NCBI GenBank assembly: GCA_024275415.1 | Contig: JAJRZD010000032.1 | Location: 25,141 to 57,140 of the forward strand | Direction of reading: 5' to 3' | Length of the DNA stretch: 32,000 nucleotides | Origin: an archaeon | Lineage (GTDB): Archaea > Asgardarchaeota > Thorarchaeia > Thorarchaeales > Thorarchaeaceae | Shown here: piece by piece, positions 7,882 to 32,000 of the stretch | Numbering within the stretch: the stretch's first letter is position 1 | How the letters are laid out: the number at the start of each line of letters is the position of its first letter | Notes under the pieces: generated by a model | What the model was told of the DNA's origin: nothing | Databases searched by the model: none | What the model saw: only the letters and a program-made list of their open reading frames with translations | Made by a program: the position numbers and the translations under genes

Positions 7882-7923
7882 TCCCATTTGCAAAGAGTTA
7901 TTCATACTCCTTGAACGGGACAT

Positions 7924-8571: not shown

Positions 8572-8831
8572 CACCAGCTGTACAAAACCTAGAGGATCCT
8601 GGACATCTTGTTGTGGGTGCTTGGATAGTTTCGACGAGGCATATTCAGTGAGGTCGTCCATGACACACGTAGAACCTCACAGAGTTCACCCAGTGCCGTT
8701 CTCTGGAAGTACAACATTCTGGTGTCAAAGTTTGTACAACGTACAATAAACGGTTCACATCCATCCAATGAATGATTCAGTACATCTAAAAGGTTCATAC
8801 ATCTTCTACAGTTTTGGATGTGGATTGGAAG

Positions 8832-9383: not shown

Positions 9384-9437
9384 TCATTAGAACATACACG
9401 ATCGAGATGTTAGAAGGTTCACAGGGAGAGATAGCAT

Positions 9438-11726: not shown

Positions 11727-11732
11727 TGTCGT

Positions 11733-12638: not shown

Positions 12639-12699
12639 AGAATCTAATTACAAATAGTTTCATTTATCCGTAATGGTGCTTCAATAATGCTGACCAAAG

Positions 12700-13038
12700 A
12701 TGAACGACGCCTCAGATTCCAGAACACTGGATGAGCTTCCTGACCGAGTCTTTGTAGCGCTGGGCAGAAGAGGGATGGAAGGCATTCCCTTGAAGGAGTG
12801 TACCTACGAATGCGATAGTGTTGAACTCACACTGCTATCAGTCAGCACAAATTCACCAGATATCTCCAAAAAAGGAAAGGAGGAGATAACGGAAGATTGG
12901 ATCGTGCAATGTGAAAAGTGCGGGAGAAGTTTCACTTTCCGCTGCAAAAGCAGGTACTTTGATGGTGAGCGGATGGACACCATGGTCAATATCCTAGACG
13001 ACGAAGGAAAGGACTTGGGTTGGTTGGGAAGCTATTAG
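12700..13038 (+). CDS. Small hypothetical protein with a probable split zinc site (CTYEC ... CEKC)
   Basis: 112 aa; Cys pairs CxxxC and CxxC; ends 13 bp before the next gene with a GGGG/GGTG-type RBS between. Confidence 0.75.
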   Translation: MNDASDSRTLDELPDRVFVALGRRGMEGIPLKECTYECDSVELTLLSVSTNSPDISKKGKEEITEDWIVQCEKCGRSFTFRCKSRYFDGERMDTMVNILDDEGKDLGWLGSY

Positions 13039-13051
13039 GTGGGGTCACTCT

Positions 13052-14197: not shown

Positions 14198-14203
14198 GCA
14201 CAT

Positions 14204-15469
14204 TTGCCATATACTATTGCGGAAAAAATCATTGCTGCGCACACACACGAGAAAAATGTCAGTCCGGGCGACATCGTGGATGTGTCTGTGGACTTCATCA
14301 TGGTTCACGAGGTCTTGGGATCCAGAATAGTGTCCATCCTTGAAGAGATGGGGTTCAAGAAGGTATGGGATCCAGAGAAAGTCCTTGTCGTCAACGACCA
14401 TTGGGCTCCCGCTCCAGATACGGAAAGTGCACAAATCCATGTCCGTAACAGGCAGTTTGTCAGAGCACAGGACATCAAGCATTTCTGCGATGTCGATGGT
14501 GGTATCTGCCATCAGGTGCTTGCCGAGAAGGGGCTCGCTCGTCCGGGAATGCTCATAGTCGGGAGCGATTCACATTCCACGACATATGGTGCGTTCAACG
14601 CGTTCTCTACAGGTCTTGCGGCAACTGACAGCGCGATGATTCTGGCAACCGGAGAAATCTGGCTCAAAGTCCCAGAAGCGATAAGGATAGACATCGAGGG
14701 GCAATTGCCTACCAGAGTGATGAGCAAGGACATCATCCTGAAAATCATCACTGACCTTGGATCTGATGGTGCGAATTACAAGTCGATGGAATTCTTTGGA
14801 TCTTTGATTGATAATCTGTCAGTCGGTTCGAGGATGACGATGTGTAACATGACGGTTGAAGCCGGAGCAAAGTGTGGAATTATGCCAATGAGTAGTGCGG
14901 TGAAAGACTGGCTCGAAAAAAATGCGGCAGGTCGTGAGTATTCCCCAGTGTCGCCAGACAAAGATGCCGAATATAGTGGCTCTTTAAGTTACGACTTGAC
15001 TGATGATCCCGTTGAGCCAATGGTCGCCCTGCCTCACAGTCCAGTGAACAGTAAACCTGTATCTGAGATTGGCGATGTAGAGATTGATCAGGCATTCATC
15101 GGGTCATGCACTAATGGGAGATTGGAGGATCTTGAAATCACTGCACAGATCCTGAAAGGGAAGCGCATCCATAAGGACGTTAGGCTCATCATCACACCTG
15201 CTAGCAGGAGAACCTATATCGAAGCGATGCGAAACGGGACAATCGAAATCCTCATGGATGCTGGTGCCATTGTGACAAACAGTACATGTGGTGCCTGCAT
15301 CGGAGGACACCTAGGAGTGCTGGGACCATCAGAGGTCTGTGTGTCCAGCACGAACCGGAACTTCCAAGGAAGGATGGGACATCCTACATCCCGTGTGTTT
15401 CTTGCATCCCCAGCCACAGTCGCAGCCAGTGCGATTACTGGGATCATAACCGATCCAAGAGAGGTCTGA
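14204..15469 (+). CDS. leuC: 3-isopropylmalate dehydratase/homoaconitase large subunit (LeuC/HacA type)
   Basis: DHWAP, GICHQV, GSDSHSTTYGA, [4Fe-4S] ligands GSCTNGR and CGACIG, STNRNFQGRMG. The symbol denotes the family, not a proven pathway. Confidence 0.93.
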   Translation: MPYTIAEKIIAAHTHEKNVSPGDIVDVSVDFIMVHEVLGSRIVSILEEMGFKKVWDPEKVLVVNDHWAPAPDTESAQIHVRNRQFVRAQDIKHFCDVDGGICHQVLAEKGLARPGMLIVGSDSHSTTYGAFNAFSTGLAATDSAMILATGEIWLKVPEAIRIDIEGQLPTRVMSKDIILKIITDLGSDGANYKSMEFFGSLIDNLSVGSRMTMCNMTVEAGAKCGIMPMSSAVKDWLEKNAAGREYSPVSPDKDAEYSGSLSYDLTDDPVEPMVALPHSPVNSKPVSEIGDVEIDQAFIGSCTNGRLEDLEITAQILKGKRIHKDVRLIITPASRRTYIEAMRNGTIEILMDAGAIVTNSTCGACIGGHLGVLGPSEVCVSSTNRNFQGRMGHPTSRVFLASPATVAASAITGIITDPREV

Positions 15470-15472
15470 ACA

Positions 15473-15976
15473 ATGAGGGAATCACAAGTCCTTGAAGGGA
15501 AAGCGATAGTGTTTGGCGATGATATCAACACAGACCAGATTATCCAAGGACGTTATCTCCAGCTCCTAGACTACGCTGAGATGGCACAACACACCTTCGA
15601 GGTTGTCATGCCTGATTTCGTGCAGGTCGTAGAAGAAGGGGATATCATCGTGGCGGGTCGAAACTTCGGGGGTGGTTCCTCACGAGAGGAGGCACCGATG
15701 GTCTTGAAAACCAATGGAATAAGCTGCGTACTCGCAGAATCTTTTGCAAGAATCTTCTATCGCAACGCATTCAATGTGGGAATCCCAGCCATCGTAGTGA
15801 AGGGCATATCGAATCAGGTGAAAGAACTTGAACGCCTTCAAGTCAATCTGCTGGAGGGCATCGTCACACCATTAGGATCAGGAAAACGGTTGGTGGGAGA
15901 AAGAATACCACAGAAGATGCTGGAAATCCTCAGAGCAGGAGGAGCGGTCGAGTGGTACAAGTCACTATACAGGTAG
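15473..15976 (+). CDS. leuD: 3-isopropylmalate dehydratase/homoaconitase small subunit (LeuD/HacB type)
   Basis: GDDINTDQII, AGRNFGGGSSREEA, AESFARIFYRNAFNVG; follows the large subunit by 3 bp. Confidence 0.93.
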   Translation: MRESQVLEGKAIVFGDDINTDQIIQGRYLQLLDYAEMAQHTFEVVMPDFVQVVEEGDIIVAGRNFGGGSSREEAPMVLKTNGISCVLAESFARIFYRNAFNVGIPAIVVKGISNQVKELERLQVNLLEGIVTPLGSGKRLVGERIPQKMLEILRAGGAVEWYKSLYR

Positions 15977-16035
15977 AAAATACTAATAGGACTCGTTCAT
16001 CAGCAACCATAGGATAATCCGCAGAGGTCTTTTTA

Positions 16036-17814
16036 ATGAATATCATGCTGTTCTTGCTTATCTCACTCATCGTCCATGCAATACCGGTTCCCTATGAGTC
16101 ACAAATGCTCCGGTTCAATAGGCTGCTGAAATGGCTCCCATTTCGGTTGGCTTGGGGAACCATTGCGTGGGCTGTGATAACTATTCTTGGAATGATGGTG
16201 TTGCCTTGGGCTATTATTAGTCTCATTATGAGCTTTGCATTGTTGCTGCTCTTTGCTGGTGGTTTCAGACCAGGTCAAATCGATGACATCATAGGAGGAG
16301 CCAAAGTACCCTTCATCTGTTTTGGGCTTATCATAGTCATCGTACTCCCCGTCTTCTCAGGAATCATCGGCTGGACATCTGATGTTGCCAATGCGGAGTA
16401 TGTAGATTCGATGATATCTCAGACAACAGACCCGCTCTTTGACTCACCCATCCCTGACAATCAGGTACGACTGGTCACATCTGAGTATGCGTCATATGTT
16501 GCCCAACAACAGTTCGCATCCATTGGTTCGAACATAGATATTGCAGCAACTCATATCACGACCCGTAATGACCGGTTGGTATGGGTGTCTGTGATAGTAT
16601 CAACCAATGTACTATCTGAAAATTATGTGAAGGCATTAATCGTGGTCGATGCCAATGACCCATCATTGGTGGAAATCATCACAGATATACAAATTCCTGT
16701 TGGAGAAGGACTCTTCTGGGATAGGAATATCCAGTTTGGCAATTACTTGCAGGACATGACGAACTCGTATGAATACGCCTATCCGACCTGGGATCCAGCA
16801 GGCAATCTTGTCTACATCCAGACAAGGACTGCACTCGGGTTCGATTTCATAGAACGACCTCTTGGACCAATCATCTATTCCCAGAACGGAACCATCCAGA
16901 CCTTTGATACAATTGAGGACACTCCGAGATGGGTGACTCAGGTGTATAGCGAGGAGTGGTTGGAGCGAAGCATAGGCCGCTGGGGAGGATACCGTAGAGG
17001 AGATAGTTTCGACCTTTTCGCAGGTGGCTTCCTCTGGGTGATTCCTCCGTCGAATGACAGATTCCAGATGACTGAGGATACACGTTACATCCTCAACCCC
17101 GACACTAACAGGGTAGAGGCATTGGTGGCAGTCCATCCTCCAGGTTCATCCACGCTCTCTCTCAGTGGATTTGTAAGAGGAACGAATGATGGCATCTATT
17201 TCCATGACCTCAGAAACTCCGGTTTCGCCAGTGGGGAGGCTGCTATCAATGAGATCATCAAGCAGTTCCCAGACCCCAATTCAGGACAGTATTTTGGAGC
17301 GATGCCTTTGCTATATCCGGTTCAGATAGATGCGACTACCACAAGGTATGCATGGTATTCTCCGATTTACTGGATTGATGGGTACTATGACTCTGATGCC
17401 GAGCAGTACTACATCACAGACATCCGATTACATGCATTCGGAATAGCTGATGCTCAAGATGTAACTCTGTCTTACACGCTTGAGAGGAGTGGTACACTGA
17501 CTGGAGCTGCATTGGTAAAAGCCGTCCGAGAAGGATATGTCGCTGAGGTCGGTGGCGAGATCATCGGAGAGCCCTCAGACATATTCACACTGACAGCAAA
17601 TGTGACGAGCATTGCGTCCTATGTGGAGAATGGCGACACACACATCGTCCTAGGAACAGACAACTCGACTTACGAATACATTGTCGGCGCAAAGTCATGG
17701 ATGAATTTGACAGACTGGTACACACTGCTCAATCTACAAGTGAATGACAAGTTCACTGCAACTATCCAGATTGTTGACGGAGAATATAGGATAACCGCCA
17801 TAACAAAAGAATGA
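16036..17814 (+). CDS. Uncharacterised membrane protein: N-terminal TM bundle plus large soluble (probably extracellular) domain
   Basis: 592 aa; hydrophobic segments in the first ~110 aa, then a long hydrophilic beta-rich region; GAGGT upstream of the ATG. Confidence 0.8.
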   Translation: MNIMLFLLISLIVHAIPVPYESQMLRFNRLLKWLPFRLAWGTIAWAVITILGMMVLPWAIISLIMSFALLLLFAGGFRPGQIDDIIGGAKVPFICFGLIIVIVLPVFSGIIGWTSDVANAEYVDSMISQTTDPLFDSPIPDNQVRLVTSEYASYVAQQQFASIGSNIDIAATHITTRNDRLVWVSVIVSTNVLSENYVKALIVVDANDPSLVEIITDIQIPVGEGLFWDRNIQFGNYLQDMTNSYEYAYPTWDPAGNLVYIQTRTALGFDFIERPLGPIIYSQNGTIQTFDTIEDTPRWVTQVYSEEWLERSIGRWGGYRRGDSFDLFAGGFLWVIPPSNDRFQMTEDTRYILNPDTNRVEALVAVHPPGSSTLSLSGFVRGTNDGIYFHDLRNSGFASGEAAINEIIKQFPDPNSGQYFGAMPLLYPVQIDATTTRYAWYSPIYWIDGYYDSDAEQYYITDIRLHAFGIADAQDVTLSYTLERSGTLTGAALVKAVREGYVAEVGGEIIGEPSDIFTLTANVTSIASYVENGDTHIVLGTDNSTYEYIVGAKSWMNLTDWYTLLNLQVNDKFTATIQIVDGEYRITAITKE

Positions 17815-19073: not shown

Positions 19074-19424
19074 TCACAGGTCATCATATGGCTCTTCACG
19101 CATGTTCTGGATAGTCTGAATCGCCAGCCTGCGTGCAGCATCTCGTTTCTTCTGGATGTCCAATGCTTGCGTGCGAATTTCCTGAAAGAGCCTCTTACGA
19201 GACTGGATGACTCGCTCAATCAGGGCTGCCACTGCCTCAGACCTGCTCTTGAAAATCTCAAGCTCGACAAGTGCGTCCAAGATGCCAACAATCTCAGAAC
19301 TCATCCGGGTCATCACCGATATCTCACGTTTCTTCAGACCGAAGCGTTCCTCTGATGCCCTGCCAAGAAGCTCTTCTCGCAAGCTTGCCTGGAGTGCTGA
19401 AAAATCCCTGTTCTCTTCTGACAA
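19074..19424 (-). CDS. Ribbon-helix-helix (CopG/NikR-like) DNA-binding protein with C-terminal helical extension
   Basis: ISVMTRMSSEIVGILDALVELEIFKSRSEAVAALIE fits the strand-helix-helix pattern with the SRSE signature. Confidence 0.75.
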   Translation of the reverse strand: MSEENRDFSALQASLREELLGRASEERFGLKKREISVMTRMSSEIVGILDALVELEIFKSRSEAVAALIERVIQSRKRLFQEIRTQALDIQKKRDAARRLAIQTIQNMREEPYDDL

Positions 19425-19993: not shown

Positions 19994-20335
19994 CTATACC
20001 TTGTGTTTCTTCAGCGTATTGACTACGGACTTCAGATTCTTCTTGATGAATTTGCGGAACTTGGGGTCATCAGAGAGGAACAACGTTGTCGAATCTTGAA
20101 GATTGCTGATGTCACCATCAATCTCTATTGCCTCTCCGAGTTCGATAATATCGTTCTTGAAGACTCCTTCGATTGCATGAGGAGAGAATCCCTCCTTTTT
20201 GTATACAGGGAAGATTTGCGCCTTTGTCGCAGCGCCACCTAGCTTGAGCAATGCAAGAATCATAAGCCAATGATGCCAAGCCAAGGTGTAATTACTCAGG
20301 AATGCCATGACTTCTTCTAAGGGTCGTTGTGTCAA
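19994..20335 (-). CDS. Small hypothetical protein, possible winged-helix fold
   Basis: 113 aa; GGAGG 7 nt before the TTG start; ILALLKLGGAATKAQIFPVY resembles WH helix 1-helix 2. Fold assignment is tentative. Confidence 0.75.
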   Translation of the reverse strand: MTQRPLEEVMAFLSNYTLAWHHWLMILALLKLGGAATKAQIFPVYKKEGFSPHAIEGVFKNDIIELGEAIEIDGDISNLQDSTTLFLSDDPKFRKFIKKNLKSVVNTLKKHKV

Positions 20336-20361
20336 ACATGCGCCTCCAAGGTTTTCATTAT

Positions 20362-21681
20362 TCAGGTTTCGTCTTCACTTAATGTGTCTTTTGACTCTGC
20401 GCCTTCAGGCATAGATAACGACAACGGTCGAATCTTATCGTCCTCAATTTCCACGAGACCGGCATCAACGAACTTTTGCAGTTGACGCTTGAGCAGGATC
20501 GTAGGAATGCCAAGTGCCGAGGAGAGGTGTTGTAGCGGAAGCCAGTTTGTCTTTCCGGCGATGATGAAATATGCTTTGAAAGCTGGTTCGTCCTCAGCAA
20601 TCTGGTAGAGCGCATCCCATCGCGATTCCATCTCCTTCAACTGTGCTTTCAATGATTCAATCTCTGCCTCTTGAGCATCCCTGATACCTTTCCACTCAGC
20701 CGATTCGTAATGAACCGATTCAATCTTCTTCTCGAACTCTTCCTTCTGAGCCTCTAGTTCCGCTATTTCCTTTTTCAGTATGTCAATCGCGGCATCCCTC
20801 TGCATGAGCTTGTCCTCATACACCATTATCTGCCCACGGATGCTTGCGAGTTCTTCGATACGTGACTCGTACTCCTTTGCGATAGTTTCGGGAGTGCCAA
20901 GTTGAGCCAAGAGGTCTTTCTGCGAGCCTAACTGAACCTGCGATTTCTCAATTTGTCCCTTCATCTCAGCAATCTCAGCAGTCTTCTCTTCTAAAGCAGT
21001 TCGCAGTTCGGTAAGTGAAGTCCGGAGGTCCTCGATGTTCTTTTGACTCTGTTGAAGAGCTTCATCCTTCAACCTGATCAATTCTTCTTGTTCGGATGCT
21101 TTGCTTCTCCAGATACGAACCTCTGCTGCGGTACTCTCAAGTTGCTTATCAAGCTCGTTGAGTTTCGCGTAGAGTTGAACAAGCCTATTCTGGTGTTCTT
21201 CAGCGGTTTGAAATACCTGCAATGTTATCCCACTGCTGGTGGTAAGAACCATCGAGTCCAATCGTGATTTTGCCTCTTTGATTGCGTTCAGAATGGACGA
21301 CACCTGCTGTTTTGCGTTCAAGTTCTCTTTCAACCGATTCTTCACTACGGAAGCAGCTCTTGTCGCAAAAACACCAAGTCCAATCGTTTGAAGTTCTTTA
21401 GTGACGACAGAGATGACCTTCTCTAGCTCACCGTCAATCGCTGCCTCTGTAGACTCGACGTTTTCCTCGATGAACGAAAGTATCTCAGTGAATTGCTTGT
21501 GAACCTGTTGGAGCGTGTTGTCAGACTCTCCGGGTACGGTCTTGACAGATGTTTCCGAGCGAGCCTTGCTACCCGGATCCGAACCTAGCCCAGACTCTTC
21601 CATCACTGCTTCGATGAGCTCTTTGTCCTCATCAGTGAGCCCAACTCGTTTTTCAGGCTCGCGGTCTTCAGGATCGGACAA
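20362..21681 (-). CDS. Long coiled-coil protein with C-terminal winged-helix domain
   Basis: GAGGT then TTG start; about 200 aa of heptad-like E/K/L/Q-rich sequence; C-term LPLQHLSSALGIPTILLKRQLQKFVDAGLVEIEDDKI is a typical WH. Confidence 0.85.
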   Translation of the reverse strand: MSDPEDREPEKRVGLTDEDKELIEAVMEESGLGSDPGSKARSETSVKTVPGESDNTLQQVHKQFTEILSFIEENVESTEAAIDGELEKVISVVTKELQTIGLGVFATRAASVVKNRLKENLNAKQQVSSILNAIKEAKSRLDSMVLTTSSGITLQVFQTAEEHQNRLVQLYAKLNELDKQLESTAAEVRIWRSKASEQEELIRLKDEALQQSQKNIEDLRTSLTELRTALEEKTAEIAEMKGQIEKSQVQLGSQKDLLAQLGTPETIAKEYESRIEELASIRGQIMVYEDKLMQRDAAIDILKKEIAELEAQKEEFEKKIESVHYESAEWKGIRDAQEAEIESLKAQLKEMESRWDALYQIAEDEPAFKAYFIIAGKTNWLPLQHLSSALGIPTILLKRQLQKFVDAGLVEIEDDKIRPLSLSMPEGAESKDTLSEDET

Positions 21682-21693
21682 GTTGTCCCTACC

Positions 21694-22068
21694 TCAGTGT
21701 AGAACGCCTTTGTAGCCCATTGCCGTAAGTCTAGAAGCTGTTTCCTTTAGCTTTTCAGAAACAATAGCTGCTTCTTGAATCCGGCTCATGAGTTCCTTCC
21801 TGAATTCGAGAGCGGTCAGTTCACCATTATCAAGTCGAGCAGTCAGGTCGCTTCGCTCCGCCTGAAGCTCTTCTCGTCGCTGGTACAATCGCTCATATTC
21901 CGCAACAAGATTGACGAGTTCTCCCTGCTGTTCCGGAGGCAAAGCCTCAACCGGAGGTGCCTTTTCAGGCTCCTTTACAGCCGGGCCTGTCGTCATGATT
22001 TCGCGTCCTCTTACTCTGGCTGGTTGCACATGTTTCTTCTTTCTTCGCCAACTATCAAATAACCCCAT
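21694..22068 (-). CDS. Small helical protein with N-terminal amphipathic/basic motif and C-terminal helical hairpin
   Basis: Start reassigned to ATG 22068 (GGAGGT-agaaaaa-ATG), giving MGLFDSWRRKKK... 124 aa. Confidence 0.8.
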   Translation of the reverse strand: MGLFDSWRRKKKHVQPARVRGREIMTTGPAVKEPEKAPPVEALPPEQQGELVNLVAEYERLYQRREELQAERSDLTARLDNGELTALEFRKELMSRIQEAAIVSEKLKETASRLTAMGYKGVLH

Positions 22069-22086
22069 TTTTTCTACCTCCAAACT

Positions 22087-22638
22087 CTATTTGCCCAGAA
22101 TATCCTTTATCTCCTTCAATCGTTCCTCAAGTGACTGTCGCATGTTTTTTGCCACACTCGCTTTCTCGTCGTATTCCTCAGAACTGGCAGGGTCGTTCAG
22201 GGACATCTCGGCCAGTTCGTTCTCTTTCTCGAAAAGCCTTGCAATCTTAGCCTCAAGATCCTTCATCTCAGCTCGAAGATTCTCATGGGAGGCGTCCTCC
22301 TCTTCTGTGACCTCCTCCGGTTCAGGAGGCTGCTCGATGATGACCTCATCTTGGCCGTCAAGCTGCTCAGTCGAGAAACCTTTGACACGAACTTTGATGC
22401 CCTCGTCAAGTCGTACTTCTAGCTTTTCCATCCTTTCAAGGATCTGGGTCATCTGATCACTCAAGTTCTTTATTGCAACAGTCTGTCTGTCAATGGTCTG
22501 GAAAAGGGCATCTGCGAACTCCTCGAAGTTCAAGCCGTATTTGTAGCTATCAAGGACATCCTTGATGTTTGCTATGTCCTGAATCAGCTTCCTGCGCTCA
22601 TCAGGATCTATGATTTGGGATGAGTCTTTATCATTCAT
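22087..22638 (-). CDS. Helical/coiled-coil hypothetical protein with acidic linker
   Basis: 183 aa; GAGGTG RBS overlaps the end of the upstream GTPase gene; two helical blocks separated by EQPPEPEEVTEEED. Confidence 0.82.
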   Translation of the reverse strand: MNDKDSSQIIDPDERRKLIQDIANIKDVLDSYKYGLNFEEFADALFQTIDRQTVAIKNLSDQMTQILERMEKLEVRLDEGIKVRVKGFSTEQLDGQDEVIIEQPPEPEEVTEEEDASHENLRAEMKDLEAKIARLFEKENELAEMSLNDPASSEEYDEKASVAKNMRQSLEERLKEIKDILGK

Positions 22639-22640
22639 GG

Positions 22641-23519
22641 TTACACCTCAATCTCACTTATTATCTTGAAATCGACATTCTCGAAGACCACAGACTTCAG
22701 CAACTCGAGCCAGCGGTCACGAAAATCACGACGGTTTGCCTGCATACCATAAGCAGGAACATCCAAACGTCTTCCAACTTCCTTTGGAGACAATGCTCCA
22801 GGCAAATCCTGCTTGTTTGCTATAGCGACTGCTCGTGCATAAGGGAGCTCAGCCTTGAGAACAGGATAGGCAACACGCTTTGTCCAATCAAGGTTCTCTT
22901 GCGTTGAATCTGTGACTATCACAACAACACTACCGGCACGTATGATTTTCCCCCATTCTTGGACAAAACGATCCTGTCCGCCCAGATCGAACATGCTGAA
23001 AACATATGGGTCGAAATCAGCTTTCAAGAATGCCTTATCCCCAAAGAACGTGGGCACATATTCCTGAGGTGGTCCCTGTGACGGCAGTGTGGCCAGCTCA
23101 AGAAGTGTTGTCTTTCCGGTACCACCATGTCCAGCAAGGCAGACTTTCACAGGAATCTTGCTCACGATGCTTCGGAAACTGGGTTGGAACGGGCTGAAAT
23201 CGGTGGATTTCCACTCATCGCTCTCCAGAATACCCTCATAGGCAGTCATGAATTTCGAAACCAAGTTCATCATGGCTTCCTCTGCTTTCGAGAGAGATGA
23301 TTGTCTATCCATTGTGATTATGAATTGAGTGTCATGGCTATTCATGTACACATACCTGAAGCGTTCGATTTCCATGCTGTCGATTTTCCATTCGTGTAGT
23401 TTTTTCGCTGAAGATGAAACCAGCATCATGACAGCATTTGAATCAAGATCGTTGTTTGGAACAATAGTGTCTTGAAACAGTGGCTTGCCTTCTTTAAAGA
23501 CATGAAGCTCGCGTATCAT
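22641..23519 (-). CDS. N-terminal longin-like domain fused to an Arf-like small GTPase
   Basis: G1 GHGGTGKT, G2 YVPT, G3 DLGGQ, switch II EW, G4 NKQDL; first ~120 aa show a longin-type strand/helix order (MIRELHVF...RYVYM...FIITMD, then helices). Confidence 0.9.
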   Translation of the reverse strand: MIRELHVFKEGKPLFQDTIVPNNDLDSNAVMMLVSSSAKKLHEWKIDSMEIERFRYVYMNSHDTQFIITMDRQSSLSKAEEAMMNLVSKFMTAYEGILESDEWKSTDFSPFQPSFRSIVSKIPVKVCLAGHGGTGKTTLLELATLPSQGPPQEYVPTFFGDKAFLKADFDPYVFSMFDLGGQDRFVQEWGKIIRAGSVVVIVTDSTQENLDWTKRVAYPVLKAELPYARAVAIANKQDLPGALSPKEVGRRLDVPAYGMQANRRDFRDRWLELLKSVVFENVDFKIISEIEV

Positions 23520-23720
23520 AGTTTCTTAGTCCTCCAGATTTATCATACAATATCTTCGAGTGTGATAATGAACATTGGGCAGATTCCCATATGAGCGTAA
23601 TTCGTACCATTGCACTAGCGAAATATGTTTCACAATCTGCTCGTGGACATCATCCTTCAAGTTTCATCATCACTCCGTTTCTTGCAGGTTGAGGGGGACA
23701 ATACCCCCTCGGTTGCAATC

Positions 23721-26700
23721 CTATTCGTCTGCCAAATCATCCTCCTCTATGATGTCTTCATCGTCAGCTGAAACGTCCGTTTCGTCTGATTCGGAGCGCG
23801 CTTCTGCGTCCTCTTCGACATCTAAATCCTCGGGTTCATCAGAGAGTGAGTCTTCGATTTCCTCTTCAAGTTCCTCACTATCCTCCGAGTCTTCTTCTAA
23901 AGACTCAGATTCAGCAGTGTCTTCTTGTTCTGCTATTTCATCATCCTCCTGAGGCTCCGCATCATCGAGAACATCAGAGGCAGTTTCATCCTCAGAGGTG
24001 TCCAGAGTTGGTTCTTCGGGGATTACCTCTTCAGAGGTGTCCTCGGCAACTGTATCATCAGGTTCAGCCTCGTCCATCACTTCATCAACAGTAGGTTCTG
24101 CTGCAGGCTCCTCCGGTTCATCAGGGGATTCCTCGACCTTCTCAGTTTCGATTTTCTGCTCCCCAACATCTGCCTCTGATTCAACAGCCTCAGATACTTC
24201 CGCATCCTCCACTTCAGGAACCTCTGGCTCGGCTTCGATTATTGTGTCAAGCTCGGCCTCTAGCTCGGCCTCGAAGGATGAAACATCATCGGGGAGTGTT
24301 TCTTCGACACCCACATCCTCAAGCGCGTCCAGTTCATCAAGGAGACCTTCAGTGTCATCTAGTGACACATCATAATCCATCTCAGGACCTACTTCGATAA
24401 CAGGAGCTGAAAGGTCGAGTTCTGCCAGTCCGGGTGCCAGAAGCTCTGAAACAATCGAACCCATCGTCTTCACTTGATCAATCTTCGCCGTCTTGCCATC
24501 ACCCATGGCCTTCAATGCCTTGTTGATCTGCTTGATGGCGAATGGAATCTTGTAACGTTTGATTCCAATGTAGGATCCACTTCCGATGGCGAAAAGTCCA
24601 ATCATCAAGAGAATGGTCTGGAACATGGAGAGTGGGATTCTGAAGGAGCCGACGGATAGACCGAACACGGATGTCAGCGCGTCTACAGGTCCAAGTATGT
24701 CTACTGTGGCCTCGGTGATGGTCACAGAGATTACCGTATTGCTGGCGCTGGTGATGTTCGTGTAGAGCGGCGCCTCAATCACTACCTGAATGCTGTAGGC
24801 TGTCGTACTTCGTTCGCCAACCTGCGCACTGACTACACTTGCATAGTATCGCTCGTTCTCCTCATCGTAGAAGAGACCGTCACCTAGACTGAAAGTCAGT
24901 TGTGAGTTCACAGTGAGTTCTGCACGTGTCACCATTGAAGGAGTGATAGACCTCTGTCGTCCACCGACTGTATCAATGAACTTGAACCAGATGATTCCAG
25001 TCTGCCCTTCCTCGATATAGAAGCCGCTCGTTTCAGTCACGAGCTGTGTCGTCCCTACAAGAACGAGTTTTGGCTGGATGGTGACGGTAGTGTAGTTCTG
25101 CAGTTCAGCCGTTATGTTCAGGGTGAATATCCCAGGCACACGGTCATCACCAATCTCTTGAGGATTGAATGTCAAACGGTATACTTGAGTGCCTGCCTGA
25201 TAGCTGGCATAGAATATTTGGCCTCCGTACTCCATCGAGATGGTTGCTCCAGTCAAGACACCTGTCAGCGAAACAGAATCATCATCGACACTGTATGTCA
25301 GGATGATTTCGCCTGTATCCTCGCCATAGACGAGGGTATAGGTTCCCTGATCGGACTCAAGAGCAACATCTACAGGATTGATGACCAAATCGAGCACTCC
25401 ATTCGGAATGGTGAAGTTCTCGTTATCGACCACTATCAACAAGGTCCTGTCGCCAGCAGGAATCTCCATCGTGTCAACGGTCACATGATAGTCAACACTA
25501 GTATCCCGATAGGCAAGATAGCCAACGATGGATGTGCCCTGCCAGCTGTAGTACACCGTCGTATATTCAAGAGCCAGCAGCCCTCCACCGTGGGTATTGA
25601 ATACCCTGACTTGCAATTCGAACTCCTGCGACCAAGTCCACTCTAAGGAGGTGGGAGCATCAATGATTATCGTTCCCGAAATGGGCTCTATGACCACTGA
25701 AGTGGTGTTAGTGCTATCGACATAGTTTGGCAACTCGTAGGTGAAGGTCAAATCGTATGGATCCGCAGAGGCGGGGAACCAGTTGTCCGAGTCAAAGCTG
25801 AGAGTGAAGGTTCCGTTGTTGTGATTGACCATCTGTAGCGAGTAGGCCCCATAACTTACTGTAATAGTCGCCCCTAACCAGATATATCCTCCATGAAGTG
25901 CGTCGTAGAGATGAGCCTTGATGGCAATGGGGTCACTCCAATTGACAGCCCCAATGGAGTCGATTACTAATGAGGCATCGGTTTCAAGAACCAGCATGAT
26001 GACTGTGGTCAGGTCGTGCTCCTGATACCCATTCCTCATCAGCTCGATTGTGATTACATAAACTGAGCCTTGGACATTGGCATTCATCCCAAGGAGCTTG
26101 GTATCCACAGTGAGTGTGTACCAGCCTCCGCCTTCGTTGACGACATCAGTAATCGGAATGTCCAGTGGGATAAGAGTGTAGGTTTCTGATTCAGCATAGG
26201 TGATTGGCAAGTTATCAAGGGTGTTGTTCCAGTAAAACCGTACATCGAATACATCTGCGTAGAACACCTCGAAATACTGCTGTTCAAGTACGACCTCATT
26301 AGGCACTGCATCAATGCGCACGAAGAAGGTTATCTGGTCGGCAGTCCCTCCCGTAATCGTTGCAGTAACAACAATCTCGTAGAGCTGATCTTGCGGTACT
26401 GCATCGTAAGCGTTCAGGGTGACATTGTATATGCCGCCCGAGTAACCACTTAGAGTGCCACTCTCATCCACGACCGACTCGACAAACCAGCTGTATGATA
26501 CTGTCGCTCCTGTCACAGGAGTATTGATCCTAGACTGATCCCAGAGCGTCAGCTCGATAGTGAAATTACGAGTCCAATACACAATGAGCGGATTCTCAAT
26601 AGAGCCGAATTCGCTCTGAATCAGGAGCGGGACATTCACTGTGATTGTCAGGTCGATTTCACCATTCACATGATTGTCCTTGATAAGCTGGAGGCGTAAG

Positions 26701-29700
26701 ACCCATGTCGATGCTTCCACTTCTGTGCTTACAGTGATTCGGTAGATGCCTCCGCCAAGCTCCAGAAGCGCTACACTATCAGTCCAATTGCTGGAGAAAG
26801 TCGCGCCAGTAAGCCCAACACTATCCGAAACCCGTGAGAAGTCCACATCAAAGACCGCGGGCGATAACCAATCAATCTGGACTGTATCTGAGGTGATAGC
26901 AGTGAGGGTGGTTGGAGCCGGAGAAACTGTGATGAAGCTCGCAGGGCTTGTTATGGTCGCTGTGGCAGACCCGTAGTTGGCCTTCGAACAAGTGACACTG
27001 ATGTTCCATGAACCTACGGGAACAATATCCCTTGAGAATGTATAGGTCAGAACGCCACCAGAAACCGAAAGGGTCCTTGTGACATTGAGATACGACATTC
27101 CTGCATCCGTGTACCATCGGATAACGACTTGCACATTAGACAGTGTGGGTACGGTAGTGTTTCCTGCGAATCCGTATTCGAACTGGAAATCAGTGGTTGC
27201 CGGATCCCATGTATAATCATTGGTTGAAACTAGTGTCACCTGCATAGGAATCTCGATAATCGTCACTCCGACAATGAATGTCTGGTTGATATAGTTCCTT
27301 TTCTGAAGAGTAAGTGTAATCGAGTACACGCCTGTGTCAAGTCCATTGAGGACAGAGGGGAGAATCTGGTACAGGTGTGCACTCACTCCCAGCGTCCCAG
27401 ACCTGAGCTCGGTCGCACCAGACTTCACAGTATAGTTGAAGACATTCAGACCAGTCACATTCACACCATTTGTGGAATCGTATAACCAATAGGAATGGGT
27501 GCTGTGGTTACCATATTGCTCAGTATAGGATGAATCGCTTATTCCCAGACTGGTTTCAGCGGGATTCACTGTCAAGTAGATGGTTATTGTATCAGGATCG
27601 TCATATCCGGTGGTATGAGCGTTGATTACAATCGTGTAAGGTGTTTCAGACACATTTAGTTTCCACAGATCGGTGTCAACAATGATTGTGTAGTTCACAG
27701 CTGTGTCTTGGACAACATAATACTCTGTCGCCTGAGACCAGTAACCCCAGCCAATAGGCGTCGAACCCATGTATATCGTGTAATTCACCCATGTCGTGCC
27801 ATCAATATTTATGACTGATGTTGTGCTTGGACCGTCCCTATCATAATAGCCCACCACAAAAGATGCGTTTCTACCCCATTTTGCTGTCAAGTATGAAACA
27901 GTAGAGTTCAATTCGGTATAAAAGTCTGCATAGGCCGGTACATTAATTGTGATGTTATTGACGAACCACCAGTCCTTATCGGCCTTCACAAGTATTTCCG
28001 TGAGAAAGCCATTACTGGCATCGCCAGCGATGACTGTAACGTTGTAGGACACCGAATAAGGTGATGACATGTTGGCATGAATGACAAAGAAGGTGATTTG
28101 TCCTGTACTGTTGGTGCTACCTGTGGCAACCAAATTGCCACCCTTTAGAGTGATATTCACTTGAGCGCCTTGTACAAAGGTGCTAGGACCTGTCATTACA
28201 CGGAAGTTCGCACGAGAAATAGGTAATTCGACCGTATAAGATGTTTCACCTTGCAAACTTGTCAGGAATTTCGTATTATTTCGGGCAATTGGTGTTTCAG
28301 AATAGCTGTCGTCCTTCCACACATCCAAGTTCCAAGTCCCATTTACGATGCGATAGAAGTTATAGACGCCATCTGCATCAGTCGTGCGTGTGAGTGTGTA
28401 CACGTTCTCATTCTTGGTATTGTTAATCTTGACCGTTGCACCTTCGATGGGCTGGTCATCCCAGCTCATCACAGTGACACGAAGTGTGATCAATGGCACT
28501 TCGAATGTATACGAGTAGGGCCCTGTATCGAAGTCCGCTTCATTTCGTGACCAATTGCCAAATTGTAGCATTTGATCGTACTGATACGATGAAACGTTTC
28601 CATCATAACGAATGAAGAACGAGTATGCATCTTTAGGCAGCCGATAGAATGATGCCACACCAGATGCGTCTGTTGTCTGCTGGTCTATGTAGGCACTCCC
28701 ATCAGCGCTCGGTCCAGTCACATTGGAGGCCCGGATGCGTGTGGTTTCATCTGCGGTCTGTGCCATGGGATTGCCCATGAGATCCTGCAAGGTGATGTCA
28801 AAGGAGCCCATTGGGAGGATTACATCAATGGGTGTGACAGACCCTGTGATTGCGTGGTTCGAGGTGTTGCGAACCCAAATATGGGTATATGAGGTGTACA
28901 ACCATGAGGCTGCATCTATGACTGCGCGTACCTCATAGGTGGCATTGCCTAGGCCTTCAAAAACAACAAGTCCATTCGAATCGGTTATGCCTGTGCGATT
29001 TCGCCCCTGCTCGTCCAGCCAGATAGTGGAAGTTGTTGCATTGTAGAGGGTCACCTGCACACCCTCAACTACTGTGCCATCAAGGTCTTTGACTGTGATA
29101 TCGAATTCGAAAAGATGTCGTTCAGAGCCGTATGTAATACTAACTCCAGCCTGATCCTGGTCAGGAGAGTACGCAGGGACTGCCCAGCCATAACCTGTAT
29201 CATAGATTGGGTCGTAGGGAGCAGTTGTCGAGAACCTACCCACATCGACTACTCCGATGCTAGCATTCGATGTTATGTGATAGAGTGTCATCCCAGAGGA
29301 TACTGGTCTGAATGATGCCATTCCGCCAGCGGGGATTTGGAGTGTGCCACCATTGTATCCGCTTATTTTGACCTCGGCATTCTCAAGTGCGACAATCATG
29401 AACTTGTAACCATTGATGCCCCAAAGCTTGTAATTAGTGCCATAACGATGACCTGTGATAGTAGGAACCCAGTCACCAGCATCGGTCACAGCCGTAGGAT
29501 TGTAGAGACCTTCAACCATGAGCATTGAACCAGTATCGCCCTTGATGTGAAGGACATCCTCGGGATCCGTATCGCTTGCGACACCTCGTGCAATAAGGTA
29601 AGAGCTATTTGCTGCAATGTTCTGAGTGCCTACATATGTCCAGGCGCCCCCGTTGGAACTTCGCCACCAGCTGATGTCAACGGCGGTACTACCTAGGTTC

Positions 29701-30956
29701 GTGACTCTGGTGTAGTCGCCGCTGTTACCCATATCAATAGTATAGAATTCCTCACCTGCAAGATTGCCATTCACATCGGGATAGAATGCCCAGATGTCAC
29801 GGGAGTAGGCTGCGTCAACGTCCCCACATCTTCCAGTGATTGGCTTTGTGGCGTTTGCAATCTTGATGTCGTTATATACGATGTCCCATTTGTAAATATA
29901 CTCGCCTTCATCGAGGATGGCGGGCCATGTGTTCACCAGAGAGTAGTTGTTGAACCTCCAATTGGTATCCGCAGACCCATCCGCATTGGTAATCCAGACC
30001 TGAGTGTCATTCTCTTGTGCTAGAACCCAGTACTTCCCTTCGTTTCGAGCGTCGAAACCCTCAACGCCACCAAGGATGATTTCCGTTCCAGAACCTGAGC
30101 CCAGTTGGTTTGTCACTGGGAACCAGTCGTTCATAGCCGCATTTGAGCCTTCGTCACCTTGACCCATGTGCACATACATTGGGTAGTTGGAGTAAACAGC
30201 ATAATACCCGGTGAACAATGTGTAAGAGTATACATCGGGCTCGTAGCGTGCTGCTTGATATTGAGCGAGTGTTCCAGAAGGAACATTTGATGGATAGACG
30301 CTTCCGCTAGTCCCATCCCATTTGCCATCCAGATTGCGGGGATCGTCCCAAGTCTGGGAAGCAGAATCGTACATCTCAATGAGGTAATTATTGTTATCGT
30401 AGAAAGAAACGAGGCTGATGAGAGAGAATGTATAGGATTTGTAGGTGAATGGATAGAAGTTTGGATAGCTTACTGTTCCAACAGGCTCCTTGGCATAGTA
30501 GATGTAATAGTTGGTCTCAGTCGAGCCCGAGGAAACATTCACCAAGAAGGATATCCGAGTCGAGAGGATGTAATTCCCAGTGGCATCATATGTTGTATTC
30601 CAGACTTGGAATGGTAAGAGTGTCCATCCGGGGTTGTCATAGTACGCGACACGTATTGATCCCGCATAACAGTTGCCCTCTGTAAATGTGAGATACAGAT
30701 GCACGGGCGAATTGGTCTTACTCGCTTCAGATGCGTCAAGAGTGAAATTGAAGTACCGCCGATAGATGAAGGTACTATTCCACCATGTCGCTTCGTCTTG
30801 GAACCCGGCCAACTCGACCCCACTGTTCTTGACCTGAAGGGGGGTGGCGTCAGTAGGCTCCGGTGCTGGTTTGTTCATGGTGGATGTGTTTGTCATTGGC
30901 AATAGCAGGAACGTGACAAACGCCGCAAACAGGATAAACATGATTCGACGATTCAT
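23721..30956 (-). CDS. Giant (2411 aa) type I cell-surface protein: signal/anchor, DUF2341-like, IgGFc-binding-like, CarboxypepD_reg-like and Ig-like repeats, TM, acidic cytoplasmic tail
   Basis: Start reassigned to ATG 30956 (GGAGGT 8 nt upstream). Hydrophobic N-term; WWNSTFIYRR...YYIYY; four TT(D/N)xxGxxxF beta-sandwich units; about 9 units ending in a (Y/W)x(I/L)xxxxxxxNY-type strand; TM at about 24561-24630 followed by KRYK; many N-x-S/T sequons. Confidence 0.92.
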   Translation of the reverse strand: MNRRIMFILFAAFVTFLLLPMTNTSTMNKPAPEPTDATPLQVKNSGVELAGFQDEATWWNSTFIYRRYFNFTLDASEASKTNSPVHLYLTFTEGNCYAGSIRVAYYDNPGWTLLPFQVWNTTYDATGNYILSTRISFLVNVSSGSTETNYYIYYAKEPVGTVSYPNFYPFTYKSYTFSLISLVSFYDNNNYLIEMYDSASQTWDDPRNLDGKWDGTSGSVYPSNVPSGTLAQYQAARYEPDVYSYTLFTGYYAVYSNYPMYVHMGQGDEGSNAAMNDWFPVTNQLGSGSGTEIILGGVEGFDARNEGKYWVLAQENDTQVWITNADGSADTNWRFNNYSLVNTWPAILDEGEYIYKWDIVYNDIKIANATKPITGRCGDVDAAYSRDIWAFYPDVNGNLAGEEFYTIDMGNSGDYTRVTNLGSTAVDISWWRSSNGGAWTYVGTQNIAANSSYLIARGVASDTDPEDVLHIKGDTGSMLMVEGLYNPTAVTDAGDWVPTITGHRYGTNYKLWGINGYKFMIVALENAEVKISGYNGGTLQIPAGGMASFRPVSSGMTLYHITSNASIGVVDVGRFSTTAPYDPIYDTGYGWAVPAYSPDQDQAGVSITYGSERHLFEFDITVKDLDGTVVEGVQVTLYNATTSTIWLDEQGRNRTGITDSNGLVVFEGLGNATYEVRAVIDAASWLYTSYTHIWVRNTSNHAITGSVTPIDVILPMGSFDITLQDLMGNPMAQTADETTRIRASNVTGPSADGSAYIDQQTTDASGVASFYRLPKDAYSFFIRYDGNVSSYQYDQMLQFGNWSRNEADFDTGPYSYTFEVPLITLRVTVMSWDDQPIEGATVKINNTKNENVYTLTRTTDADGVYNFYRIVNGTWNLDVWKDDSYSETPIARNNTKFLTSLQGETSYTVELPISRANFRVMTGPSTFVQGAQVNITLKGGNLVATGSTNSTGQITFFVIHANMSSPYSVSYNVTVIAGDASNGFLTEILVKADKDWWFVNNITINVPAYADFYTELNSTVSYLTAKWGRNASFVVGYYDRDGPSTTSVINIDGTTWVNYTIYMGSTPIGWGYWSQATEYYVVQDTAVNYTIIVDTDLWKLNVSETPYTIVINAHTTGYDDPDTITIYLTVNPAETSLGISDSSYTEQYGNHSTHSYWLYDSTNGVNVTGLNVFNYTVKSGATELRSGTLGVSAHLYQILPSVLNGLDTGVYSITLTLQKRNYINQTFIVGVTIIEIPMQVTLVSTNDYTWDPATTDFQFEYGFAGNTTVPTLSNVQVVIRWYTDAGMSYLNVTRTLSVSGGVLTYTFSRDIVPVGSWNISVTCSKANYGSATATITSPASFITVSPAPTTLTAITSDTVQIDWLSPAVFDVDFSRVSDSVGLTGATFSSNWTDSVALLELGGGIYRITVSTEVEASTWVLRLQLIKDNHVNGEIDLTITVNVPLLIQSEFGSIENPLIVYWTRNFTIELTLWDQSRINTPVTGATVSYSWFVESVVDESGTLSGYSGGIYNVTLNAYDAVPQDQLYEIVVTATITGGTADQITFFVRIDAVPNEVVLEQQYFEVFYADVFDVRFYWNNTLDNLPITYAESETYTLIPLDIPITDVVNEGGGWYTLTVDTKLLGMNANVQGSVYVITIELMRNGYQEHDLTTVIMLVLETDASLVIDSIGAVNWSDPIAIKAHLYDALHGGYIWLGATITVSYGAYSLQMVNHNNGTFTLSFDSDNWFPASADPYDLTFTYELPNYVDSTNTTSVVIEPISGTIIIDAPTSLEWTWSQEFELQVRVFNTHGGGLLALEYTTVYYSWQGTSIVGYLAYRDTSVDYHVTVDTMEIPAGDRTLLIVVDNENFTIPNGVLDLVINPVDVALESDQGTYTLVYGEDTGEIILTYSVDDDSVSLTGVLTGATISMEYGGQIFYASYQAGTQVYRLTFNPQEIGDDRVPGIFTLNITAELQNYTTVTIQPKLVLVGTTQLVTETSGFYIEEGQTGIIWFKFIDTVGGRQRSITPSMVTRAELTVNSQLTFSLGDGLFYDEENERYYASVVSAQVGERSTTAYSIQVVIEAPLYTNITSASNTVISVTITEATVDILGPVDALTSVFGLSVGSFRIPLSMFQTILLMIGLFAIGSGSYIGIKRYKIPFAIKQINKALKAMGDGKTAKIDQVKTMGSIVSELLAPGLAELDLSAPVIEVGPEMDYDVSLDDTEGLLDELDALEDVGVEETLPDDVSSFEAELEAELDTIIEAEPEVPEVEDAEVSEAVESEADVGEQKIETEKVEESPDEPEEPAAEPTVDEVMDEAEPDDTVAEDTSEEVIPEEPTLDTSEDETASDVLDDAEPQEDDEIAEQEDTAESESLEEDSEDSEELEEEIEDSLSDEPEDLDVEEDAEARSESDETDVSADDEDIIEEDDLADE
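23724..24400 (-). repeat. Low-complexity Asp/Glu-rich coding region (protein tail)
   Basis: Translation is dominated by E and D (e.g. EEDSEDSEELEEEIEDSLSDEPEDLDVEED); no exact DNA tandem unit is evident. Confidence 0.8.
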
Positions 30957-30960
30957 TCTA

Positions 30961-32000
30961 CTAGACCTCCATGATGACATCCTTGTTGCTCGGGTGGAAA
31001 TTCCTCAGAGTTTCAAGATAGTGAATGGCCTGACGAGCGGGAATATCTCCGTCATTGTAAAGGTCAACAGTGCGAGAGATCAACCATTCGGGATAGACCG
31101 TGACGACCTCAGGATCGCATTTCAAAAGGACATGCTCATTCCCGCCTTCATCCTTGTATTTGGAGATGATGTTGGCTTTCTCAAGTTTCCGGAGTTGCTT
31201 TTTGATCTGACTTTTCGAGATGTCAAGCTTTGCTTCAAGAGTGGCGGTCAGCGTGGGGCCTCTCCTGAGCTCGCTTATGATATCGTGTGCATCGAAATCA
31301 AGAATGAACTGAGATAGCTCCTGAGCCTCGAACCAAAGGGTTTCAGACAGGTCTCTACGGAGGCGTGCCACATACTCGCGGTGGTATTTCCTTGCTGTGC
31401 GGAGATACTCATCGGCAATCTCCTTTGAAACCTTTCCTGTACGAACCGCCCTCGCTGTTTCTCGGGATATGCCTCGCAGGATGAAGATAGCTCGGGTCAG
31501 ATAGATGACCTCTGACGAAAGGCCCTCAACCCATCCAGTGGCGACAATGCCCATCTTCACGAGAGGTCTCAGAATCATGTCAACGTCAATCTTCTTGCCA
31601 ACCTCCTCGAAGATGAGTTGTTCTAAGTTGGTTGATTGTACCGTACCATCCTTCATAAGTGTCTGAAGAATCGCACGACGCACTGGGTCGTTGACGACAG
31701 ACGCCTGACGCTGTTCGGGTGTCATGTGAGTGTACCGGGATATCTGTTTGTACAACTTGGGCACGAGCGAGGTATATGCATCACCTTCGGCATTCAAGAA
31801 AATCTGAGTGGCAATCTCAGGCAATGCATCCTTGTAAGCGTCAGGATCCTCGTCAGTCCCCAGCACGAGGAACACCATGGAAGGCAGCCCCTTCAGGTGC
31901 ATGTTCAAACCACCATAATACACAGCCAGCTTGAAGTCGGGAAATGGTAGAGAGGAAAATCCGGGTCTTTGTGCCTCTTCTGTTTCGCCCAGCGTTGCAA
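30961..32000 (-). CDS. Longin/uDENN-like domain + two winged-helix domains; 5' end lies outside the window
   Basis: Frame is open from 31923 to the edge (...ATLGETEEAQRPGFSSLPFPDFKLAVYYGG...SMVFLVLG...PDAYKDALPEIATQIF). WH1 DPVRRAILQTLMKDG...ILRPLVKMGIV; WH2 LEAKLDISKSQIKKQLRKLEKANII. Confidence 0.82.
   Translation of the reverse strand, partial: ATLGETEEAQRPGFSSLPFPDFKLAVYYGGLNMHLKGLPSMVFLVLGTDEDPDAYKDALPEIATQIFLNAEGDAYTSLVPKLYKQISRYTHMTPEQRQASVVNDPVRRAILQTLMKDGTVQSTNLEQLIFEEVGKKIDVDMILRPLVKMGIVATGWVEGLSSEVIYLTRAIFILRGISRETARAVRTGKVSKEIADEYLRTARKYHREYVARLRRDLSETLWFEAQELSQFILDFDAHDIISELRRGPTLTATLEAKLDISKSQIKKQLRKLEKANIISKYKDEGGNEHVLLKCDPEVVTVYPEWLISRTVDLYNDGDIPARQAIHYLETLRNFHPSNKDVIMEV

Follow-up and report, generated by a model that had tools for sequence, protein, structure and literature searches.

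To what are the longin domains and small GTPases of the Asgard archaea wired? Hundreds of Asgard eukaryotic signature proteins (ESPs), these among them, have no known partners or cellular role. The question is raised anew by a run of seven genes in a Thorarchaeaceae genome (assembly GCA_024275415.1). Here, the window is the whole stretch of DNA that was analysed, 32,000 nucleotides of contig JAJRZD010000032.1 (positions 25,141 to 57,140 of the forward strand), and the seven genes, called g1 to g7, lie co-oriented on its minus strand at 19994-32000. An initial annotation, drawn from the letters of the DNA alone, proposed that they form an undescribed module coupling a giant surface protein to a longin-GTPase and to scaffold proteins. 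All of their open reading frames (ORFs) are present where that annotation placed them, and the gaps of 4, 201, 2, 18, 12 and 26 bp between consecutive genes are reproduced from the ORF coordinates.

The answer offered here is that the membrane-to-GTPase system is probably real and apparently undescribed. The cluster is best explained as the Thorarchaeota form of an Asgard-wide unit, made of a giant glycoprotein and an NPRL2-like protein, that is here joined to a longin-Arf-like switch and to helper proteins. The main new result is the link between g1-like proteins and giant surface proteins.

The giant in the window is g2 (23721..30956, minus strand). Its translation and hydropathy bear out the annotated type I membrane protein of 2411 amino acids (aa) with a cytoplasmic tail. 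It has an N-terminal signal or anchor, an ectodomain rich in beta-sandwiches with Pfam matches to CarboxypepD_reg, SpaA and Ig-like families around aa 830-900, one C-terminal transmembrane (TM) helix, and a cytoplasmic tail of ~280 aa that is 39% D/E; the chain carries 48 N-x-S/T sequons. The Pfam scan of the window protein gave no DUF2341 or LamG match, though both occur in the fused Lokiarchaeia-type relatives described below, and an Atlas search with its N-terminal part gave no usable match. Across the Thorarchaeota orthologues, a 55-residue juxtamembrane segment of the tail is conserved, and the TM helix with its juxtamembrane motif (...KRYKIPFAIKQINKA...SELLAPGLAELD, 24366..24626, minus strand) is kept in all of them. 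Written as TM-x3-[RK]-I-P-x-x-[IV]-K-[KQ]-(about 35 aa)-...LGL, this motif is common to g2 and to giants encoded beside g1-like genes in other Asgard families. A sequence search with the tail, run under a word prefilter, returned six Thorarchaeota giants only.

Giants of this kind are found joined to a g1-like protein in a single chain. In genome G220, a 2087-aa ORF consists of an ectodomain, a TM helix, the tail motif and a complete g1-like domain. Counts across genomes, here and below, are taken from the matches listed, and are lower bounds or samples. TM helix, tail motif and full g1-like domain stand in one chain in 61 of 62 long homologues (strong matches from many independent assemblies, labelled as LamG or DUF2341 proteins of Promethearchaeota and others), with the g1-like domain 15-25 residues behind the membrane-proximal motif. 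The complete fused proteins are ~1950 aa long and contain DUF2341, Laminin_G_3 and CarboxypepD_reg domains. These one-chain fusions are classical Rosetta-stone evidence that the giant's cytoplasmic end is where a g1-type protein acts.

Where the two are separate genes, they tend to be neighbours. Of 23 g1-like loci from many families, 14 have, as same-strand neighbour of the g1-like gene, a gene for a TM protein that exceeds 1100-1600 aa and is truncated where the locus ends. In five closed genomes, 12 of 19 tail-motif matches lie no more than 4 kb from a g1-like gene (G220, 5/5; G175, 4/6; G041, 3/3; G149, 0/4; G026, 0/1), where the chance estimate is ~2%. When the listed matches of two phylum-wide searches are paired, the tail motif stands 40-100 bp from a g1-like gene in about 40 genomes. 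By family, the tail motif occurs only where g1-like proteins occur, a type of count that is, of course, inflated by relatedness; in the g1-poor families f5 (1/31) and f18, the sole g1-positive genome is also the sole tail-positive genome. The g1 and giant cassette is, moreover, duplicated in G339, where the order is g1-giant-g1-giant-GTPase, and in the genome of the window (contig C109). Two giants stand in tandem in G016 and G024.

The second cassette of the window genome (G000:C109, L038:138-7883) encodes g1b, 388 aa and 72% identical to its counterpart, and giant B, a protein of 2192 aa that is 33% identical and bears the tail motif as well. Contig C109 is 8.2 kb long and probably belongs upstream of the point where the window contig ends, the assembly having seemingly broken in the repeated g1. 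A third giant of this genome (G000:C1:63019-71067, or L058:9019-17067, minus strand) has more than 2682 aa, is cut by a contig end, and carries a divergent tail motif (E 4e-4); any upstream partner genes would lie past that end.

What, then, is g1? The gene (30961..32000, minus strand) runs to window base 32000, where the contig ends and its 5' end is lost; by alignment, the window protein lacks ~41 N-terminal residues, and its full-length orthologues have 387-388 aa. Its fold was therefore modelled on a full-length orthologue from a genome of the same genus (79% identical, 20-row alignment), for which AlphaFold2 (AF2) gave a predicted local distance difference test score (pLDDT) of 84 and a predicted template modelling score (pTM) of 0.77. 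The model contains a longin domain (1-131), a first winged helix (WH1, 135-217), a helical linker, a second winged helix (WH2, 276-342) and C-terminal helices. Together with the fold matches, this bears out the longin and two winged helices that had been read from the sequence.

Three independent structure searches rank NPRL2-type chains first over the whole length of g1. Foldseek against the PDB places GATOR1 chain 9v0j_B at the top over 371 columns, but at E 1.8e-3 and a TM-score of 0.22. VIA-align finds GATOR1 chain 8fw5_B (Z 11.2) and, from the SEA complex of yeast, chain 8adl_S (Z 10.4). In AFDB Swiss-Prot, S. pombe Npr2 is the top match at 8.8e-5, and mammalian (mouse, bovine) and fly NPRL2 align to model residues 2-342. 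The TM-scores between g1 and NPRL2 are low, 0.2-0.26, since domain orientations differ. Taken alone, the longin domain (AF2 residues 1-131) matches longin chains 8yqg_B, 4afi_B and 4zy8_C with Z 8-10. Thus, g1 has the architecture of NPRL2 and NPRL3: an N-terminal longin followed by tandem winged helices, ~380 aa in all. Sequence homology to NPRL2/NPRL3 was not found, as there is no Pfam NPR2 or NPR3 match and a PDB sequence profile search yields only winged helix-turn-helix (HTH) regulators. The relation of g1 to NPRL2, as modelled, is one of fold and architecture only. The g1 family itself is not new, since an "NPRL2-like" family was already listed in most Thor metagenome-assembled genomes (Liu et al., 10.1101/2020.10.19.343400). 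By profile searches, g1-like proteins are present in 311 of 400 Asgard genomes, often in at least 4 copies.

The GTPase of the cluster is g3 (22641..23519, minus strand; 292 aa). The annotated union of a longin with an Arf-like GTPase holds by its Pfam Arf match (6e-12, above cut-off), its AF2 model (pLDDT 90) and its fold matches. Residues 1-123 form the longin domain, which matches the VAMP7 longin with Z 16.4 and a root-mean-square deviation of 2.1 over 116 residues. The Arf-like G domain spans residues 120-281 and matches Arf6 with Z 20.4 at 26% identity; SR-beta chains follow with Z 16.3-16.8, and Arf6, Arl13B and Sar1 are the better matches. The G motifs are intact and invariant in two alignments: G1 GHGGTGKT, switch I T157, G3 DLGGQ with the catalytic Gln kept, and G4 NKQD. 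The N-terminal amphipathic helix of Arf is missing from g3, and the longin domain stands in its place, which is a known Asgard variant (PMC11914678). Relatives of g3 number 552 representatives at E<=0.001, and longin-fused Arf/Rag-like GTPases have already been catalogued as Asgard ESPs (10.1101/2020.10.19.343400, PMC10933270, PMC11914678).

Is the neighbourhood of these genes conserved? The check that had been proposed came out positive, and more strongly than expected. Across about 10 genera of Thorarchaeota, the order of all seven genes is unchanged (tblastn, 17 loci), with identities of 75-84% for g3, 62-80% for g1 and 28-61% for g2. Set against that of g3, the identity of g2 indicates an ectodomain that evolves fast, with only the short juxtamembrane segment kept. 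Flanking metabolic genes are, however, equally syntenic, so that synteny at the family level proves little by itself. More telling are gain and loss, and recurrence at a distance. The module is accessory, with a g1 orthologue in about 44 of 86 family genomes. Among the 25 family genomes searched with both g1 and g3, both orthologues are present in 19 and both are absent in 6; the only genome that seemed to deviate, G024, does so because its contig is cut.

Across families, a g1-like gene is directly followed by a longin-GTPase gene in f1 (in two paralogous modules), f7, f8, f13, f15 and f21, and the two are divergently oriented in f24. Several further Asgard families share a core made up of g1, g3 and g5. 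At L041 (f13), one strand carries a giant, g1, the GTPase, a g5-like gene and a g6-like gene. In a maximum-likelihood tree of 36 g1-like proteins, those linked to a GTPase form one clade with 98/96 support, and a divergent paralogue pair falls outside it. The element common to the giant and the GTPase sub-modules is g1. Gene linkage, fusion and co-duplication, in turn, imply that the g1, giant and GTPase genes are functionally coupled.

A paralogous module in the window genome (G000:C28, L037:4042-7351, minus strand) encodes a g1-like protein of 368 aa, a longin-GTPase of 283 aa and a hairpin protein of 195 aa, with no adjacent giant. Modules of the C28 type also occur in relatives within the genus that lack the module of the window (for example G005, L057).

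The four remaining genes encode what are here treated as helpers. None of g4 to g7 has a family match or an NCBIfam model at cut-off, and the labels "helical hairpin" (g4, g5) and "WH-like" (g7) are readings of the sequence. Orthologue alignment gives g4 (22087..22638, minus strand) as an acidic helical protein of 183 aa with the C-terminal hairpin motif ...NDPASSEEY..., found only in families f1 and f2 of the Thorarchaeota order. Homologue comparison divides g5 (21694..22068, minus strand; 124 aa) into a conserved MG[LI]x[DE] N-terminus with a polybasic stretch, a Pro-rich linker and a putative helical hairpin. Proteins like g5 that also begin with MG[LI] come directly after the longin-GTPase in f7, f13, f21 and, weakly, f15, and after a g1-like gene in f31. 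In loci where no such protein was recognised, a comparable hairpin motif, DL.F...G[FY]I..EEY, closes the gene that succeeds the GTPase; this motif has a weak likeness to SHOCT. The next protein, g6 (20362..21681, minus strand; 439 aa), begins with an acidic stretch, continues in a long coiled coil and ends in a WH-like domain; its matches are to coiled coils only, and shorter proteins of the distant modules L041 and L034 have the C-terminal WH-like block in common with it. A g6-like WH protein also follows in the modules of f13 and f8. The last, g7 (19994..20335, minus strand), is a basic protein of 113 aa, putatively WH-like, whose alignment shows it to be conserved across the Thorarchaeota order.

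PDB profile searches with g4, g5 and g7 gave generic coiled-coil or chance matches only. In the Atlas, g5 matches Thorarchaeota clusters only, and g7 weakly matches bacterial clusters. An ESCRT-I headpiece (Vps23/Vps28/Vps37) was considered for g4 and g5 and rejected, since there is no Vps28, Vps23_core or Mod_r Pfam match at E<=1, including in 14 members of the g5 family; no Pfam family of ESCRT-I or ESCRT-II matches any of g4 to g7. Two GTPase operons elsewhere hold an extra longin/roadblock-like protein. In G025 this is a 510-aa protein with a WNEKEG start motif, encoded between g6 and g7 (L032:13420-14952, plus strand); in G031 it is a 303-aa protein with two WH-like blocks (L034:4042-4953, minus strand). 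The set of helpers around the GTPase is thus variable.

How might these parts work together? Of the module that was initially annotated, the functional tie of the surface protein to the longin/GTPase unit is supported by synteny and by the linkage and fusion of g1-like proteins with giants across the phylum; the physical contacts, the regulation of the GTPase and the biological output are what we infer. The chances seem evenly balanced that the module acts as a longin platform on a receptor tail, which positions and regulates an Arf-like GTPase. Here, g2 would project from the membrane as an adhesin or receptor, and g1 would be seated at its tail, much as the g1-like part is the C-terminal domain of the receptor itself in Lokiarchaeia-type genomes. 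The longin of g1 would then pair with the longin of g3 and so let the receptor tail control the Arf-like G domain; longin-longin pairing is established in NPRL2/NPRL3, FLCN/FNIP and Mon1/Ccz1. The MG-hydrophobic-polybasic N-terminus of g5 would keep the complex at the membrane, and the hairpin, coiled-coil and WH proteins g4, g6 and g7 would serve as scaffold or effector subunits. The net outcome would be an assembly under GTP control beneath sites marked by the surface protein. A complex prediction with the g1 and g3 orthologues of G003 and their alignments gave a score of 0.00, which is evidence neither way.

A number of observations weigh against this scheme. G008 keeps g1-g3-g5-g7 without g2, g4 and g6, so that the giant is separable from the GTPase sub-module. 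G025 encodes [giant-g1] and [g3-g7] at two loci, most Lokiarchaeia-type units of giant and g1 have no adjacent GTPase, and the four tail-bearing giants of G149 lie far from any g1-like gene. Taken together, these cases show that a genome can encode the giant apart from the GTPase sub-module. In the window itself, g2 is separated from g3 by the only sizeable intergenic gap of the cluster. This gap of 201 bp holds a GC-rich inverted repeat (gagggggta ttg tccccctc, 23691..23710, minus strand) with a perfect 8-bp stem (gagggggt/accccctc-type) 11 nt past the g2 stop, which may mark a transcript boundary or a processing site. The fused receptors retain the tail motif, and what it binds may therefore not be g1. 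The N-terminus of g5 has a hydrophobic moment that is not significant against shuffles, and an amphipathic helix there is a guess. As for the GTPase, the catalytic arginine finger of NPRL2, a GTPase-activating protein (GAP) for Rag, is Arg78 in the longin domain. The corresponding beta4-beta5 loop of g1, compared by eye, reads HLKG in Thorarchaeota, where a single genus shows an R, and distant homologues lack the loop, which makes a GAP mechanism of the GATOR1 type doubtful. Last, g1 is recognisable by sequence only in WH2, as an ArsR-like HTH.

Such observations invite other explanations, and three deserve to be weighed. The broken linkage might simply mean that Thorarchaeota have two independent neighbouring units, [g1 + giant] and [g3-g7], with a GTPase operon that is unrelated to the surface protein. 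The gap with its hairpin, the two loci of G025 and the Lokiarchaeia-type units without a neighbouring GTPase all speak for this, as does the equal degree of synteny that the OB-fold and acyl-CoA dehydrogenase genes alongside show in the family. It is nonetheless an unlikely account, for g1 is the link: it adjoins the GTPase in seven families, including in G008 and in distant modules without a giant, and elsewhere g1-like genes adjoin, or are fused with, giants. The single-strand arrangement at L041 and the joint gain and loss of g1 and g3 orthologues also stand against independence. The ArsR-like WH2 leads to a different thought, that g1 is a DNA-binding regulator of the giant gene next to it, that the fused forms are tethered to the membrane as ToxR is, and that the longin serves as sensor or for dimerisation only, the GTPase genes being a separate matter. 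Indeed, WH2 exceeds the Pfam gathering scores (HTH_20, 34 bits with a cut-off of 27; HTH_5, 29.8 bits with a cut-off of 22), its sequence matches TFE, SmtB and CzrA, the linker and WH2 are basic (isoelectric point 8-9.3), and a regulator beside its target, co-duplicated with it, is a common arrangement. Yet the NCBIfam ArsR/SmtB model stays under its cut-off (35 vs 55 bits), and g1, a multidomain protein of 388 aa, is unlike the small soluble dimeric ArsR/SmtB regulators. Its recognition helix varies among homologues, the distant ones having lost the basic residues. The architecture over its whole length fits NPRL2, whose WH domains bind protein; 61 of the 62 long homologues tether the g1-like domain close behind the membrane-proximal motif; the adjacency of g1 and longin-GTPase is conserved; and g1 and g2 overlap or abut, which leaves no room for an operator between them. 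We regard regulation of the giant gene by g1 as quite improbable.

The third explanation grants the GTPase a role, but a different one. Here, the genes would encode a machine for the biogenesis, targeting or positioning of very large membrane proteins, built like SR-alpha/SR-beta, in which the GTPase cycle controls the insertion or export of g2, its hand-over for glycosylation, or its placement. This would account for a longin fold joined to a G domain of the Arf/SR-beta kind, for partner genes that always encode very large type I proteins, and for the co-duplication of g1 with the giant. However, SR-beta is outscored by Arf6, Arl13B and Sar1; an adaptor permanently fused to the C-terminus of its client suits a receptor with an effector domain better than a catalytic chaperone; and about half of the family genomes have tail-bearing giants without the module. 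The probability left to a biogenesis machine is accordingly small.

The remainder of the locus can be described briefly. The starts used for g1 to g7 are those backed by orthologues and by the public gene call, which gives g2 the same length. GGAGG stands 9-14 nt before the starts of g3 and g7. Scans for a sigma-70 promoter and for the intrinsic-terminator consensus stayed at chance level, and such consensus sequences are unsuited to archaea. Downstream of g7, the same strand carries an OB-fold/zinc-ribbon (ChsH2-like) gene, a 116-aa gene and an acyl-CoA dehydrogenase gene, which are treated as lying outside the module. The 116-aa protein (window 19074-19424, minus strand) looks by eye like a ribbon-helix-helix (CopG-like) protein. 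Its gene is two genes past g7 here, directly past g7 in G025 (L032), and near the module in several genera; judged by this look and position, it might be the transcription factor of the module. Window positions 1-17814 hold ordinary genes, for a P-type ATPase, an S8 subtilase, an MFS transporter, a PHP hydrolase, TPR proteins and a melibiase-like glycosidase, as well as for an FAA hydrolase and an isopropylmalate/isocitrate dehydrogenase with an aconitase-family large subunit.

What would follow from the favoured reading? The locus and its relatives provide a testable wiring, from a receptor with a cytoplasmic motif, to an NPRL2-like longin protein, to one longin-Arf-like GTPase with a putative membrane anchor. 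If this wiring is true, the Asgard cell surface, which is thought to mediate cell-cell contacts relevant to eukaryogenesis, becomes linked to the ancestry of GTPase control of the GATOR1/FLCN type. The matched sets of proteins would then be available for biochemistry, and the tail motif with the g1-like domain would be a marker for such receptors in any Asgard genome. Complex surface proteins have been seen on Lokiarchaeial cells (PMC9834061), and the giant DUF2341/LamG/Ig-type glycoproteins would be candidates for these. A broader proposal can be entertained only tentatively and is, on balance, doubtful: that Asgard archaea have a pathway from transmembrane receptor to longin platform to Arf-like GTPase, in which the NPRL2-like domain, fused or neighbouring, recruits the GTPase and a membrane-bound scaffold, and that this pathway is a forerunner of GATOR1/FLCN-Rag signalling or of Arf/Sar recruitment driven by cargo receptors.

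How does this arrangement compare with systems already known? The claim that the system is undescribed agrees with the searchable literature, incompletely covered as it is, where no description was found; its component families are, of course, among those catalogued as ESPs. Within that coverage (10.1101/2020.10.19.343400, PMC9834061, PMC10933270, PMC11914678, PMC12290439, PMC10936438, 10.64898/2026.10.28.762692), no mention was found of giant surface proteins being linked or fused in this way, of the tail motif or of the g1-g3-g5 operon. The longin-fused Arf/Rag-like GTPases of Asgard archaea have exactly the architecture of g3, with the Arf-type DxGGQ and NKQD motifs. In MK-D1, GTPase genes are generally not in operons with roadblock, longin or TRAPPC3 genes, and genome layout has been of little help in matching GTPases to regulators (Tran et al., PMC10933270). 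Unlike these, g3 has conserved neighbours, namely g1, g5 and the WH proteins.

The SRX domain of SR-alpha with SR-beta offers a second comparison, as there too a longin-type fold meets an Arf-family GTPase at the membrane, next to machinery for membrane and secreted proteins. The module differs from it in having no NG domain of the signal recognition particle type and no TM anchor on the GTPase, and SR-beta is a weaker match to g3 than Arf6. The initial annotation had also drawn an analogy between the tandem winged helices and ESCRT-II (Vps22/Vps25/Vps36). The tandem WH region of g1 does match ESCRT-II chains, but these matches are partial, of low significance and below those of NPRL2, and ESCRT-II has no longin domain; this analogy is therefore weaker than that with NPRL2.

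The closest comparison is with NPRL2/NPRL3 of GATOR1. The likeness includes the longin and tandem WH architecture and the best fold matches over the whole length of g1. It extends to a G(P) motif in the beta1-beta2 loop of g1 (WDDELGPVV), which resembles the GP motif reported in longin GAPs (PMC12290439), and to the genomic pairing with a small GTPase that bears a longin/roadblock-type domain. The differences are as instructive. In g1 there is no NPRL2 match at the sequence level, and the arginine-finger loop, by eye, is unconserved. No DEPDC5 or NPRL3 counterpart was identified in the window, where g3, with its N-terminal domain, offers the only candidate for a second longin. The GTPase partner is of the Arf kind, its longin at the N-terminus, and not of the Rag kind, which has a roadblock at the C-terminus. 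And gene order and fusion attach g1 to a giant receptor at the cell surface, an association that has no eukaryotic parallel.

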